From contig NW_024704742.1 in assembly GCF_018977255.1 (NCBI RefSeq), forward strand, positions 120,468,001-120,532,000: a DNA stretch of 64,000 nt, in the 5' to 3' direction. Below the pieces are notes generated by a model. It made no database searches. It saw only the letters and a program-made list of their open reading frames with translations, and was not told the DNA's origin. Position 1 is the stretch's first letter; each line of letters begins with the position of its first letter. This DNA comes from Callorhinchus milii (taxonomy: Eukaryota). A program made the position numbers and the translations under genes. Below, one piece after another: positions 1,285-63,423 of this stretch.

Positions 1285-1790
1285 TAAAGGGGGAAAGCTG
1301 AGGTGGGGAGAGGAAAGGTGGCCAAAAGCATGGTCGAAAAGTTAATAAATAATAATCCTTACATTTTATATGGTGCCTTTCACATTATCAAGACATCTCA
1401 AAGTGCTTCACAGGACTTTTCTGTAGAGAGCAACAACTGTGTAGTTTTAGGAGATAGTGGCAGCCAATTTATAGATCTCAAGGTGGGTTTTGTAGGCAAA
1501 GAGGGAGAGGGCAAGGTGGAGTTCCAGAGAGTGGGGACAGAATGGCTAAAGACTCACCTACATGATGATGATGATGATGGGGTAAGTGTGTTAGAGACAT
1601 GAAGCAGGCAAGTGTTTGTTGAGCAGAGCAAGTAGCTGGGGCTGAAGGTTGCAGAGGTAGAGTGGGGTGAGGCTAATGAGATATTTGAATGTGAGGATGA
1701 GAATCTTGAATTCGATCCACTGGGGGATGGGGAGTCGATGGAGCCACGGCAAGAACTGGGCTTGTGGAGTCTGGTCTGGGAGAGGACATG
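1285..1790 (-). mobile_element. Degraded L2 3' fragment, apparently interrupted by a SINE tail
   Basis: ORF 1591-1824 contains WLHRLPIPQWIEFKILILTFK, the L2 ORF2 C-terminal HWLP..RI.FK motif. Confidence 0.7.
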
Positions 1791-10576: not shown

Positions 10577-10683
10577 CTGACAACTCTTTGTCTTCTTCTT
10601 CTTTTGTAGGAATTTCTTCCTTCTTTTGTTTTGCTGCCAAAAGTTCCCGTTTCAACTGACGCACTTCTTTGCGCAACTCTTCA
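10577..10683 (-). CDS. CWC27: CWC27 spliceosome-associated cyclophilin, internal coding exon (equivalent to human exon 11)
   Basis: Minus strand reads ttctcattgcAG|TGAAGAGTTG...TTGTCAG|GTaaag. The exon is 107 nt, phase 2 to phase 1, and translates (S)EELRKEVRQLKRELLAAKQKKEEIPTKEEEDKELS, matching recalled human CWC27 SEELRKEARQLKRELLAAKQKK. Confidence 0.93.
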
Positions 10684-11753
10684 CTGCAATGAGAACAGTG
10701 TTTACATAAGCACATAATTTACTCTGTAATAAAACCACTTAGCAGAAGAGAAAGTTCCAAGCAGATGCTTAGAAAATCAGAGCTGTAAACTGAGAGAATG
10801 TAGTTATTAAGAACACATGCCATCAATTATTCAGAAAACTTCAAGAATTTGTGGCAGATTTTATTATTTTTAAGCGGTTCAGACCCATAATAATGAATTT
10901 TAAAAGTCATTGCGTTTTAAATATTTTAATGTACTTCTTCAGGTCAGCAATGTTGCTGCCATGTTTGACATCCAAGCATGCAATCCAACTACTTGTTGCT
11001 CTGCTGCCTCTTCCATCAATCTTAGCGACACCTAAAACACATTTGTAATACTGTGCATGATGTTGCAACTATATTTCTTACGTCTTAGATCATAAAAGAG
11101 GAGCCATTAGTGGTACTGAATCTTTGTGCTTCAGCAGAGATTGCAAGAGGCCTGGAAAAGCAGCAACCTTCTTCCAGATGAATTTGAACATCATCAAACC
11201 ATTTTCTTGGAAGGAATTCATTGGAAATTGGTACTGCAAAGTGCTGATCTTTTCCAAAATACGCATTTACACATTTATAAAGAAAACATCATATTCGGAA
11301 GGCAAGGTAAGGTAAGGTTGTTTTGACATTTTAGAGCGCTGCAGGAATACAAATTCACAGAGGTAAAAGACCCAAAATACAATTCAAATTCAATGTAAAA
11401 AGGTTAACCTCCAGAAATCTTCTTATTACACAAATAATATTCAAACTTACAAGCTGTGATGACTCATGGATTCAAAGCAGACCTAATTCTGGAAGATTCT
11501 ATGTATTAGATTCCCCTCCCCCTTCCCTGCGCCAAACACATTTTGATAAATCAAATCAAAAAGCTCAAGTGGATTGAATTTTGTCTATTATTCCATTTGG
11601 ATAATGTTTTGGATTATGAGCAAAATGTATTTCAATAATCAACATATTTTAATTGTTAGATACTTATGGTTAAAACACATTGAAACTATTGCTTAACACC
11701 TTAAATGTGTAGTTTGATAATTTACAGTAATGTAGAAAAACAAGATTCCACAA

Positions 11754-57975: not shown

Positions 57976-58258
57976 AGGTTAGCCGGGTGTCTGAGACATA
58001 CAAATACACCATGCTTAAGAGTATCAAACCAAAATGAGAGTTCCATGCATCCCACCAACACATGGAAATTCCAGAAATATTTATTGGAATGAAATGTTCT
58101 TCTTGGAGGGACGCATCCTGTTTTCCTAATTCCGGAAAATATTAGGCACAGGTTGGCAAGAGTCGTGGCTTGGGGGCCCCAGAGTGTAAAACCTTATAGA
58201 TTTCCATTGAGAGCACTGTCTGGCAAGCTTTCCTGTTGCTTGTCCAGCTAGGACCATC
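57976..58258 (-). mobile_element. RTEX/Crack-like LINE 3' end
   Basis: Matches the reverse complement of 63105-63423. Confidence 0.65.
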
Positions 58259-59249
58259 CAAACCTTTTTTGGTTAACCAACCAAATATTTTTTTCTTGAT
58301 TGGATACTTCTAGATTTAGGGCCACGCCATAAATATTACTCAGTAGCTACCAGAAACAAAATATTGATTTCATTCAGACTTTCCTAGATAAGTGCAAATG
58401 TTCAGCAGTTCACTTTTGGCTCTAGGAACGCTCAACCTTTGATTCAACCAAGGACCACTATATTATTGTAATAATCATTTGATATACCATCATATCACAT
58501 TGGTGAGACATCTCAGTGTTTCACAGGAGTTTGGTACCCATGGAGTGGTACTTCTCCAGGAATTGATCTTTTCAGGAAAAAAGGGAGAAGCAATCTGCAC
58601 TTATATAACACATATGAAAACAACTCAAAGCACTTCACTATTGATAGACTTTACTGTGAAGTGTAGTGACTGTATATTTGTAGACCAACATAGGTGTAAC
58701 GTAGGTGGCTTGCATCGAACTGTAGTTTGGATAGTCTTAAATGATGGGTTCTGCATGTGTCAGACATACAGCTGACTAAAAAAGAAACACAGCAGTCAAT
58801 TTGCACACAGTGCAAACAGCTGTCCCACAAACAGCTATGGTGACCAATTTTATTTTGGGGATTGTTTACCAGGTCTGCAGGACAAAGTCCCTTCACTCGT
58901 CTCCTGATAGATATCAAAACTCTGTTAACCTACCTCAGTTGATAGCATTCTCGCCTCTGAGTCAGCAGATTGTGGGTTCAAGCTCCACGTAGGCACCTTG
59001 AGCTCATAGTGGTGCTTCAAGTAGTCACTGCACGTCTATCACACTCACCAGAGGCTCAGTTTCATCAGGAAGGAACAGGCTGGTAGCCATTCTCCTGAGG
59101 AATGTATGTGATAGGGTGTGGCTTTGTACAAGATGACAGAACATTGTAAGCCAAAGGGAAAATCCACCTACATTGCATTGATCAACTTCTGCAAGGCATT
59201 TGACCTAGTGCCTAGACCTCATGATGAAACTGGAAGCTATGGGAATACA

Positions 59250-59584
59250 TAATAATAATCCTTGCATTTGATATAGCGTCTTATCACATCTTTGAGACAT
59301 CTCAAAGCACTTTACAGAACATACTGTAAAGTGAATTGACTGTATATTTTGTGGGCGAAACGCAGCAGCCAATTGCGCACAGTAGTGTGCCACAAACAGT
59401 CGTGGATTGAGTGACCAATTTATTATTTTTTCCTTTACCCCCAGTAAAGCAATCTGCCAATTCCTAACTGGGTTCCTATTTACTGCTAGGTAAACAGAGG
59501 GGTGTGGAGTAAGGAAACTTTACCCAATGTTGCCAGGTCCCTCGCTTATGAGGCGAGTGCTCTAACCACAGAGCTACAGGACTC
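59250..59584 (-). mobile_element. Full-length tRNA-derived SINE
   Basis: Head gagtcctgtagctctgtggttagagc on the minus strand from 59584, body and (att)n tail. Confidence 0.9.
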
Positions 59585-59709
59585 CACGTGCCCTGGGAGG
59601 GTGGTCGAAGGCACGATTGAAGAGGAAGGCCTCTAGACAGGACTTGAAGGAAGCAAGAGAGGGAGTGAGGCAGAGGGATTGCGGGATAGAGTTCCAGAGT
59701 GTGGGAGCA
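59585..59709 (-). mobile_element. Short L2 3' fragment lacking its own tail
   Basis: Minus strand reads APTLWNSIPQSLCLTPSLASFKSCLEAFLFNRAF. Confidence 0.85.
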
Positions 59710-60102
59710 TTTGGGAAGTCCAGCGAGCAGGCAGTTGGTGTAGTAACAAGTGGCGCAGAAGTAAATACAAAATTTGAAGCAACAACGCTACCCAACATTA
59801 TTGTGGGTTATGATAAGGCCATAGGACAAGTATATACACGAAAGTTTGATTATGTGCAAAAAGCTGCACTGACAAAGAAATTCCACGACGAGGCAAACAG
59901 AGTACAGTATTACGAAATAGTAGTGTTGTCAAGATTACAAGAAACATACCACGGTGAGAGTGATGTACAGGGAGGATCACAATGTCTCAATACTTACTAC
60001 ACCTTCATTCAAAAGGCAAAACGAGCGGAAGTAATGGTTGATCTGTTTGCGAGGGTGAATTTAGAAGATTTTGGAACTGTGGACTTAGAGGAGGACTTGT
60101 AG
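59710..60102 (+). other. Unidentified coding-like insert (~130 codons, no internal stop); candidate endogenous viral element or foreign retrocopy
   Basis: Non-L2 part of ORF 59617-60102 (FGKSSEQAVGV...EDFGTVDLEEDL*). I count 11 CpGs in ~390 bp. It does not resemble the local repeat families and lies within an insertion that splits an older RT gene. Confidence 0.5.
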
Positions 60103-61019
60103 CTAGCAACTGATTCATAAATTATATAGTCAATATTGCACAACAGGACAAATGAATGCATCCACACACAAATTAGGCTGAAATGCATCAAAGCACATGT
60201 AATGACAATTCAGCAACTGAACTACAATGCCCAAATAGATAGGTGTTCATTTTTACAGATAACATGCAATCTGCTATCTTCACAGCACATGGAGAACCCA
60301 GTGATCACCTGCTGCATTAAAGAAGCAACACACCTTACAGCATGAACAGTCACCTCCCCTACATGAACCAAGTGCTAGAAGAGACAGAATATTGAGGGGC
60401 ATTTACTTAACAGTGAAAGTGCTAATTAGTGGTGAATTACAGGTAGTTTTCTGCTATAGAATGAAAGCCACTAGAAACTGGGTTGACACTGTCTAAACTT
60501 GTTTCACTTAGGATCCTTGCAGCCAGAAGACGGAAAAATACTTTAATCTCATCAGCCTCAATGAATTTCAACCCAAGTCCATCCAAATTATGTTATACAA
60601 CTGTTACCTACACATGCATTACCTACAGCCCCACTGAGCCAGTGGTCACATTCTATATTCCACTGGCACTCATAAATGTTTAAGAACATTTAAACAATGT
60701 TCTGTGAATAAGGGCAAAGGAAAGAGTAATAGATAGCCACTTCCATTCTTTATGCCATTTATGGCTATTCACCTTTGATGCTCAAGTGGAAACATGCTGC
60801 TGAAGAAATAGATTCTCTATTGAAATTTCAAATTTTAACTGCTTCAAAGAATTTTGAAGAGTAGTGGCATTGTAACTTTCTCTGCTGGGTCTCCGCCAAA
60901 TCAAATACAAAAATAAAATCACAAGATGGGATGAAGAAGGCCCTTCCCTCCCATCACAGCACTAAACTGGTGTCCTGATCTCAACCACACTTCCTGACAA
61001 ACTGTTCCAGCAGTTAAGT

Positions 61020-61370
61020 TACCCTCTGATTAAAGAAACACGACCTGATATCAGTTCTTAATTTGCCCTTTACAACTCTAAACTCATGTCCTCATGTTCT
61101 GGTGCATCCTAAACTATTGTTCTGAGTTTACTTTTGCAATGCCATTTACAATTTTACACATCTCTGTGAGGTCCCCACTGAGTCATTTTTTCTCAAGAAT
61201 GAAGAACTCTAGATTTCTAATCATTGTTTAAAGCTAATTTGTCTGAACTGGGCATTATCCTCATTGCTCTCCTCTTTCTCTAGGGCCTTGGCAGCTCCTT
61301 TATGTTGTGGTGACCAGAACTGAATACAGTAGGTGAGGCCCGACTACAGCATGATACAGCCAGAGAAGAC
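61020..61370 (-). mobile_element. Degraded CR1 fragment
   Basis: gtggtgaccagaactgaatacagta...gaggccc motif. Confidence 0.55.
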
Positions 61371-62559
61371 ATCTGGGGATCTAAACAGACGGTTACTATA
61401 CTGATTATTTAATGAGTCTGCACTGTACTGATAGTTAATGATTTTGTCAACAAGCAAAATAATCAAATGTTTTGTAATTAGTTTAAATCATAAATAATCA
61501 ATACCTAATATTTACCCCAAACCTTTCAGTGCTTACATTTAATTAAATTAAATTCCAAGTATTATAACTGGATTCTAACAGTACAGTCTAGTACAACACG
61601 TCCATGCCGGTGTTTATACTCCGTACAAGCATTTCTGCATACCATGTCATGCATTTATTTATGTATTTTTACAAATGTCTGACTCGCTATTCCAGATCAC
61701 TTGTCACTGAATTCCTTTCCTAGGAGTTGTCAGGAGTTTACTGTAAATGTCAAGTGTATTGTATTCATCTTTTATCTTTTCATCTTTCTAGACTCAACAA
61801 CTGTAAATCTAATCAGTTTTTCTTAAATTGAGTTTTAACATTATTATCAACCGTCAATCAGTTTTGTTTTTCCAAAACAAAAATCATTCATGACCCTTAT
61901 GCTCTTTAAAAGTAATTTGTACTTGTTCACTGCGGTTTTTCAATTTAAACACTGATATTATGGTACCTTTGAGTTAAATGTTAATTAGAAGTGATTTGTG
62001 ATACTGTAACCCAGGTCCTGCAGATACATTTCTCCAGATTTGCAATTTCCATGACTATGAAAACATCAAACCATGGATATCCTCATTCCAAGATTATCAT
62101 GTCAATAGGTTCCAGCATAATCCACGCCTATGGAGGTCTGCCACATGCCAAACAATAAGCCTTATAATTCAATTTATGCACCATGGTTAATATTCATGAT
62201 TTCCTGATATAATCAGGGACTTTGTTGCATTAAAGTGCAAAATTTGTGGCACCTAATCCTCCGCAACTGATCTTCCATTTCATCATGCTGTTCCAAAAAG
62301 TCACCCATTTATAATGTAGGGAGATAGAATCAACAATAGCGATTTCATTACCATAAACTGCACATGGTTTGATACTATCATTTTGAAAATAATCGAATTT
62401 ATTTCTATATTATTGTGTTAATTATTTGGGTTTCAATCCATTATAGTCCAAATCATAAAAAGAAAGAAGCTCTGAGGTAAGTCACAAATTCACCAGAACT
62501 AAGCAACTAAGAACTAGCTTGATCAAGCAGTGAGGTGGATTTGTTTTAAACAAGGGAAG

Positions 62560-63423
62560 CGGCTGCAGGGAGGCGGAAGTGGCTTTACAGCTGGTACATG
62601 GGGACCTGGATTAAGCAGCTGGTGCTGAGCAACCCTTTATGCAGCATTGAATTTAGACCTCAACAACATCAAGGTGGCTGTCACGTCGCAAGCTGTCGTG
62701 TAAAAGTCCTCCCACCACACTTAAGGCAGATGTTCGCCAGATAGTTGATGCGGGAACTTTGAGGCTTGGGACGGTTTCTGGAAAGCATTACCTGGAGTCC
62801 AAATTTGTGAACACGGGTTCGTACATCCAGCATCCAGAATCCACCTTGATTGGTTCACAGAGAGGTAAGCGGCTGCTGCTTAAGCCCCGAACCTCCAAAT
62901 GGTGGAACCATTGTTCAATGGGAAGGATGTATGGCTGAGCAGCATTCAGGAAGATGGTAGTAATGCTTGCACGCATTCCATGTTGCCAGTTCCTGAGCCA
63001 GGTGGGTCCACACTATTCCAGGGCACTGCTGATAGCCAGGCTGGCTCATCAGCAGGACTTGGAAGGGCAGACCAGTTATTGGGGCAGGGATTCTTCCCAT
63101 TCAGCTCCTAGCTGGACAAGCAGCGGGAAAGCTTGCCAGGCAGTGTTCTCAATGGCAAGCTATGTGGTTTTAGCTGGTTAGATTCCAGCAGGAACCCAAC
63201 GCACACTCTGAGGTCCCCAAACTTCAGCTCTGCCAACTTGCACATAATACTTTCCTGAATTAGGTAAGCAGGATGTGTCTCTCCTGGGAGAGAGTGCACA
63301 TTCAATTTCAAAAAACATCTCTGGAATTTCCATGTGTAGGTGGGATGCATGGAACTTTGTTTGGTTTGGATACACTTAAGCATGGTGCTGGGCTTCTGCT
63401 TGTGTCAGACACCTGGCTGACCA
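62560..63423 (+). mobile_element. RTEX/Crack-like LINE, ORF2 C-terminus and 3' end
   Basis: Degraded RALLIARL...LEGQT.YWGR, (L)ARQC and PTHTL.SP.F resemble the R..L.RLR...L..ETGRW...RLC..C....H.L..CP tail; ends gtcagacacctggctgacc plus an A-rich run. Five copies in the window; clade assignment tentative. Confidence 0.55.

Follow-up and report, generated by a model that had tools for sequence, protein, structure and literature searches.

We analysed a 64,000-nt stretch of the Callorhinchus milii genome (contig NW_024704742.1, positions 120,468,001 to 120,532,000 of the forward strand; hereafter the window) and focus here on a segment at about 59752-60102 that carries an open reading frame on the plus strand. 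The reading that we favor, and to which we give a probability of roughly one half, is that this unique segment is a dead remnant of a foreign coding sequence, namely its 3' end, which was captured together with a short interspersed nuclear element (SINE) and a piece of L2, a long interspersed nuclear element (LINE), in one target-deleting insertion and became fixed in the germline within an intron of CWC27. The locus works like a chimeric retro-insertion with foreign cargo. An earlier note, made from the sequence alone, had proposed the site as a candidate endogenous viral element (EVE).

The stop-free plus-strand frame described there is present: it spans 178 codons from 59566 and closes with a TAG at 60100-60102, and its translation agrees exactly with the peptide that was quoted. 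The orphan block had been put at ~390 bp, of which the unique part is ~350 nt; the peptide begins with 12-14 residues that are antisense L2, and all 39 non-self genome matches are confined to query positions 1-53. The length of the frame is unremarkable by chance (mean of 4.3 frames of at least 119 codons per simulated 64 kb), and when the segment itself was shuffled 20,000 times, any open frame arose in only 165 cases. The composition is indeed protein-like: of 1000 nucleotide shuffles, none attains the amino-acid log-odds score and one attains the codon-position asymmetry. Host frames of at least 80 codons number 834, of which 35 and 40 reach one score each and 7 exceed both. These scores stand at 0.23 and 40 in the last third of the frame and at -0.19 and 7.7 just past the stop. 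The coding strand is A-rich (128/351 nt). The 11 CpGs counted previously are found in 59710-60102, with an observed/expected ratio of 0.71 compared to 0.33 for the window and 0.08 and 0.00 for the flanks; for the unique segment the ratio is 0.75, a level reached in 43 of 1273 overlapping windows. Judged by its composition, the unique segment is derived from coding sequence.

Because no start codon precedes residue 98 (the only methionine), no acceptor-like AG lies near the frame start, no poly(A) follows the stop (the first poly(A)-type signal is 214 nt further on, inside an old repeat) and the coding-like signal ends at the stop, the segment looks like the 3'-terminal part of a longer gene, probably a foreign one. 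It lies in a heap of repeat fragments whose parts, together with one exon of the surrounding gene, are as follows (window coordinates):

59008-59250, plus strand: internal reverse transcriptase (RT) fragment of an old non-long-terminal-repeat retrotransposon, forming the left flank and ending in ...KLEAMGI (40 matches scored of 167 candidates)
59249-59592, minus strand: full-length tRNA-derived SINE whose (TTA)n-type 3' tail adjoins the RT fragment
59594-59744 (may extend to 59750), minus strand: 3' piece of an L2 LINE, tail-less and 5'-truncated, with an internal deletion of ~300 nt near 59709-59711
~59752-60102, plus strand: unique segment, coding-derived, with 116 open codons and the TAG, 10 CpGs and 36 % A
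60103-60170, no strand: junction zone, within which the right end of the insertion is not placeable more precisely
60171-60400, plus strand: old low-copy dispersed repeat with no class assigned and no CpG, forming the right flank
62521-63422, plus strand: 3' part of the LINE family of the left flank, beginning ~640 nt further along the element
10590-10700 (ends approximate), minus strand: exon of the host CWC27-like gene, presumed from its motifs and from PF00160 matches

Both retroelement pieces named in the earlier note, a full SINE and a tail-less L2 piece on the minus strand, were borne out. The SINE carries, at 59525-59583, a tRNA-like head whose Rfam match (E 0.004) falls slightly below the gathering score, and the L2 piece lacks the final 126-147 nt of L2 (measured on 3 copies). 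They meet at 59592/59594 with 1 nt between them, a joint present in none of the other scored matches, and the L2 piece meets the unique segment at 59745-59751. The pieces are directly fused and the retroposable tail stands on the first-copied piece (the SINE tail at 59249), as in tripartite LINE chimeras. The SINE diverges by 7.1 % from the majority of 9 copies, keeping 7 of 19 CpGs, and the L2 piece by 5.8 % from the majority of 10 copies, keeping 3 of 6. The left RT fragment differs by 12 % from its 11-copy majority and keeps 1 of 12 CpGs; for the right-flank repeat the divergence is ~17 % (72 columns, no CpG kept). The SINE and L2 pieces are therefore similar in age, and each flank is older than they are, as would suit a single composite insertion. 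Another L2 copy, L011:1408-1537, carries a near-identical internal deletion of ~300 nt with breakpoints ~10 nt apart, and this position is possibly a recurrent skip site for the L2 reverse transcriptase.

The flanks had been described as one RT gene, interrupted by the insertion and resuming at 60107 (QLIHKLYSQ). A decayed RT is present at 59008-59250, but it does not resume: none of the 11 other copies matches window 60050-60700. Beyond KLEAMGI, 9 of these 11 run on with HG-x-IL-D/N-FI-type sequence, and the following ~640 nt of the element are missing after the left fragment. By sequence comparison the right flank, starting at about 60150-60170, is a different, older dispersed repeat, unrelated to the left RT. 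It is for this reason that we see neither a split RT gene nor a target-site duplication, and the premise is gone for the right boundary and for an empty site in the form of a contiguous RT. The right-flank repeat family was found in 13 places in one genome search and in 10 in another, with copies ~62-79 % identical to the window copy; similarity among the copies fades 130-200 nt upstream of the core. Compared with 16 of them, 59751-60010 has no similarity (48 tests, best z 2.4), while similarity is clear from 60171 onward. The family is an unclassified ancient dispersed repeat of at least 17 copies (L040-L052, L080-L087) with a core of ~150-300 nt; its frames in the window have no Pfam match, and a RING-finger reading was dropped (0 of 145 frames at the Pfam cut-off).

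We hypothesize that reverse transcription took place at a break, with the L2 reverse transcriptase primed on the SINE tail. The enzyme would have jumped from SINE RNA to L2 RNA, skipping ~300 nt, and a copy of the foreign nucleic acid would then have been added to the product in one of two ways, through another jump, this time to an antisense strand, or through second-end (twin) priming on a sense RNA. No duplication would remain, since the target DNA that once separated the two unrelated flanks would have been lost. We infer that the pieces arrived in a single event. Of the successive template switching first proposed, the fused SINE and L2 of similar ages hold up; no target-site duplication accompanies them and the jumps are inferred only. 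Within this reading the donor was most likely an unsampled virus, at somewhat better than even odds that reflect only the base rates of viral donors; a parasite or microbe is the alternative. The antisense orientation had been taken as a sign of a negative-strand or double-stranded RNA (dsRNA) virus. It is no such pointer, because antisense partners are also described as common in ordinary LINE-1 chimeras and ascribed to twin priming in parts of a recent report (10.1101/2025.02.02.635956).

The segment was found in 9 of 24 listed runs, corresponding to 7 samples from 3 studies under one organism label, and 4 of the 9 were examined by contig. Single contigs extend across both the L2 joint and the stop in three samples (X1, 59715-60700; X2, 59680-60700; X3, 59715-60591), overlapping the L2 side of the joint by at least 65 letters in X2 and by ~30-37 in X1 and X3. 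The joint between RT and SINE is bridged by contigs of X1 and X2, and no one contig covers the whole stretch. Contamination and misassembly, which the earlier note had raised, are unlikely given contigs across the joint in several samples. As expected of an EVE, the integration is in the germline, with host flanks in several individuals. No RNA run is among the listed holders of the segment (24 runs; the site is intronic); X3 may be an RNA sample.

Four variants fall in the frame (1 silent, 2 missense and 1 nonsense, the last at 60022 in X2), two of them at CpG. Random change in this frame is expected to yield 22 % silent, 72 % missense and 6 % nonsense, and the variants fit neutral decay. The segment most likely makes no protein today. 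It belongs to no family that could date it; simulations give open-frame survival of 1-18 % at 6.5 % divergence (the age of the SINE), 0-9 % at 12-17 % (that of the flanks) and 0-5 % at 17 %. Since survival is only 0-9 % at the divergence of the flanks, an age as great as theirs is unlikely for the segment; its age probably does not exceed that of the SINE and may be lower.

To look for a parent, the host genome (992 Mb, with abundant L2 and SINE repeats) was searched by DNA and by protein at first-look sensitivity, with 1-2 tblastn candidates scored, and only the segment itself was recovered. The earlier failure to match the peptide to a host gene or transposon is borne out at this sensitivity: the segment is single-copy, and neither a parent nor a Pfam match (best E 0.17) was found. 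The proposed viral identity fared differently, with no viral match by sequence or structure in Pfam, PHROGs, 1.84 billion representatives, BFVD, IMG/VR or phages; these libraries include no dedicated fish RNA-virome set. PHROGs and NCBIfam gave a best E of 0.013, far below the cut-off. No homolog was found in PDB sequences, in plasmids and phages (tblastn), among vertebrates, or by a word-indexed search (0 of 184 candidates of longer lengths, 0 of 2 of near lengths). In an IMG/VR pattern scan 2 of 5 candidates pass with no locus, and 0 of 2 with shifted patterns; Foldseek gave no match at E ≤0.001 in PDB and BFVD (single-sequence model, pLDDT 52). The sole match among the 1.84 billion representatives, a HEAT-repeat protein (E 1.4e-4), was rejected since its score is summed over repeats. 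Matches in metagenomes and GTDB were rejected as chance: in L089 and L090, the two opened of 5 loci, they correspond to an unrelated 445-aa protein and to a frame antisense to ribosomal-protein-like genes.

Several of these observations weigh against the capture of a foreign coding 3' end. No homolog, viral or cellular, came out of any search, and the genome searches score first-look candidates only and may miss distant paralogs. No repeat of at least 6 nt is shared between 59225-59262 and 60090-60180 or 62490-62540; lacking a duplication, a single event is not proven, and SINE and L2 copies are so numerous that they could nest by chance. With its 1-18 % survival the open frame, like the high CpG content, agrees at least equally well with an arrival somewhat later than that of the SINE. 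The absence of CpG depletion, which we take toward a viral donor, equally suits a parasite or bacterium. The zone 60011-60170 is ambiguous when compared to the 16 repeat copies, with weak colinear similarity from ~60011 (z up to 2.3). Finally, four variants are insufficient to gauge selection.

It is conceivable that the segment is instead the relic of a rare or extinct transposon or of a retroviral accessory frame, or a host gene copied in part, its parent lost or unassembled, with the SINE and L2 as neighbors or later arrivals. A-rich coding strands such as this one are common in retroelements, the locus is piled with repeat fragments, and the tblastn first look scored so few candidates that a relative could be overlooked. 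Such a relic is, however, unlikely, though a serious contender, with no second DNA copy, no Pfam or protein match, no poly(A) past the stop and a CpG content high for host-derived DNA. Another explanation is old intronic DNA in which a frame is open by chance; this DNA would be unique or would form the upstream part of the right-flank repeat. Some four frames of such length are expected by chance per 64 kb, the similarity of the repeat copies to one another fades 130-200 nt upstream of the core, and two copies (L047, L049) align weakly into the last 26 codons of the frame. A stretch of 19 residues in L049 (~1590-1646, minus strand) resembles peptide residues 80-98, with 9 of 19 identical, and beats 100 of 100 shuffles, although it lies 160 nt out of register and is probably chance. 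We consider this origin distinctly unlikely in view of the lack of similarity of 59751-60010 to any of the 16 copies, the 10 CpGs compared to 0 next door, a frame survival of 0-5 % at 17 % divergence and two coding scores that are both extreme.

A functional host exon or a small antisense gene in CWC27 would account for an intact reference frame that is CpG-rich as in selected exons. This is extremely unlikely: X2 carries a nonsense allele, the only methionine is at residue 98, there is neither an acceptor-like AG near the start nor an early poly(A) signal, and no vertebrate homolog was found.

One lead concerns the nature of the peptide and is compatible with the capture mechanism described above. 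The peptide may come from the core of a beta-pore-forming protein of aerolysin type that belonged to a virus, parasite or bacterium, since among its nearest language-model neighbors in the ESM Atlas (0.87-0.90) are clusters in which 17-38 % of members carry PF01117 or 22-32 % carry PF03318. When the aerolysin and ETX_MTX2 families are skipped, a monalysin cluster is found at 0.85; the two Atlas results are one kind of evidence. The single-sequence model predicts four long strands, a resemblance to the long predicted beta-strands of aerolysin, ETX/MTX2, monalysin, natterin-like proteins and K62, and parts of one report describe K62 as an aerolysin-family toxin encoded by a dsRNA satellite (PMC12691639). 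Nevertheless, the peptide has no significant profile, pairwise or structural match to these proteins. The Atlas recognition is 1496, under the 2300 reached by most known families, with 129 of 256 features shared. Against 8 aerolysin cores hhalign gave a probability of 0.1 and hmmsearch -0.7 bits, equalled by 918 of 2000 shuffles, while the same 8-sequence profile does detect natterin-like and SaroL-1 chains; it reaches Cry51, parasporin and LSL at E ~0.1-0.25 only. The best pairwise score, in 1 of 8 pairs, was reached by 11 of 300 shuffles, a small-core member scored under most shuffles, and AlphaFold with 4 aerolysin rows gave a pLDDT of 33.7. Serine and threonine make up 12 % compared to 18 % and 27 % in two aerolysin cores, and there is a single proline. 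Strong strand alternation is limited to residues 1-19 and 91-115, with no Ser/Thr-rich amphipathic insertion hairpin of the five-strand core as defined in part of PMC3110756; the hairpin could be lost at the 5' junction. The lead is not supported by the profile, pairwise and folding tests, and with distant clan members in mind we hold it to be rather unlikely. The more specific proposal of a viral fossil, in which the segment would descend from an undescribed virus lineage of this host group with an aerolysin-type pore former and would have been captured antisense by an L2 reverse transcriptase in a SINE-L2-virus tripartite chimera, is highly unlikely.

Searches around this lead gave little. 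By-eye alignments to aerolysin-like cores failed shuffle tests and were rejected. A homolog search to deepen the aerolysin profile found nothing, nor did IMG/VR and plasmid scans or 200 relatives of one bacterial genome (G174). No aerolysin or ETX_MTX2 gene was found in the host genome, where controls were equally silent, and the absence of an aerolysin-clan chain among the 50 VIA fold rows listed excludes nothing. In the same bacterial genome, L113:928-1977 encodes a 349-aa protein with a C-terminal half similar (E 2e-4) to natterin-like chains of fish; of 201 related genomes, 1 has it. The sections of a review that deal with natterin-like genes report none found in Chondrichthyes (PMC8402412).

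Like the non-retroviral EVEs of vertebrates, the segment is a short, single-copy, decaying coding fragment in the germline amid retroelements, and it has no host parent gene at first-look sensitivity. Unlike them it has no poly(A) tail and no target-site duplication, and because the viral protein homology that defines EVEs was looked for and not found, it cannot be filed as one. Portions of two reports describe a few non-retroviral EVEs in cartilaginous fish (paramyxovirus-like, hepadnavirus and benyvirus-like), all defined by homology (PMC11089739, PMC11521997). No published account of the locus turned up in our literature searches, and one genus name is absent from the 12 text supplements of PMC11089739, whose locus tables possibly lie outside them. 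The locus shares directly fused RNA pieces and a retroposable 3' tail with bi- and tripartite LINE chimeras as described in parts of PMC2104539 (WEIRD/Mg-SINE/MGL) and 10.1101/2025.02.02.635956. It differs in using the SINE as its tail piece and L2 as its LINE, in having a third piece of unknown origin, and in its unrelated flanks, which show no duplication. A processed pseudogene would likewise present an intron-free coding 3' end beside retroelements, but here no parent and no poly(A) are found and CpG is high.

EVE surveys rely on likeness to known viruses, so that inserts of this kind are invisible to them. If the donor was viral, the segment would tag an unsampled lineage with a dated sequence and would show foreign RNA being captured by the machinery of L2 instead of L1. 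It is usable as a probe against fish viromes and transcriptomes. At present we have a short fossil, apparently neutral, for which neither a donor nor any sign of function has been found.

The entire window lies inside a CWC27-like cyclophilin gene, mainly in its long introns; the name CWC27 is one that we take from its motifs. Minus-strand exons lie on either side of the unique segment (L127-L129, window ~10.7 kb and L140-L143), with PF00160 matches 13-16 kb to the right of the window, placing the segment antisense in an intron of up to ~59 kb. Cyclophilin-domain matches with stop codons, possibly a pseudogene, occur at C1:120212273-120214232 (minus strand), ~255 kb to the left of the window. 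An abundant old repeat at window 60967-61300 has copies ~75 % alike (2312 candidates). The old low-copy LINE family of the left flank has three pieces within 5.5 kb, at 58045-58255 (minus), 59008-59250 (plus) and 62521-63422 (plus). The last may belong to the same copy as the left RT fragment or to a separate insertion. The pieces at 58 kb and 63 kb overlap in the element and are only 71 % alike; by sequence they are probably separate insertions.
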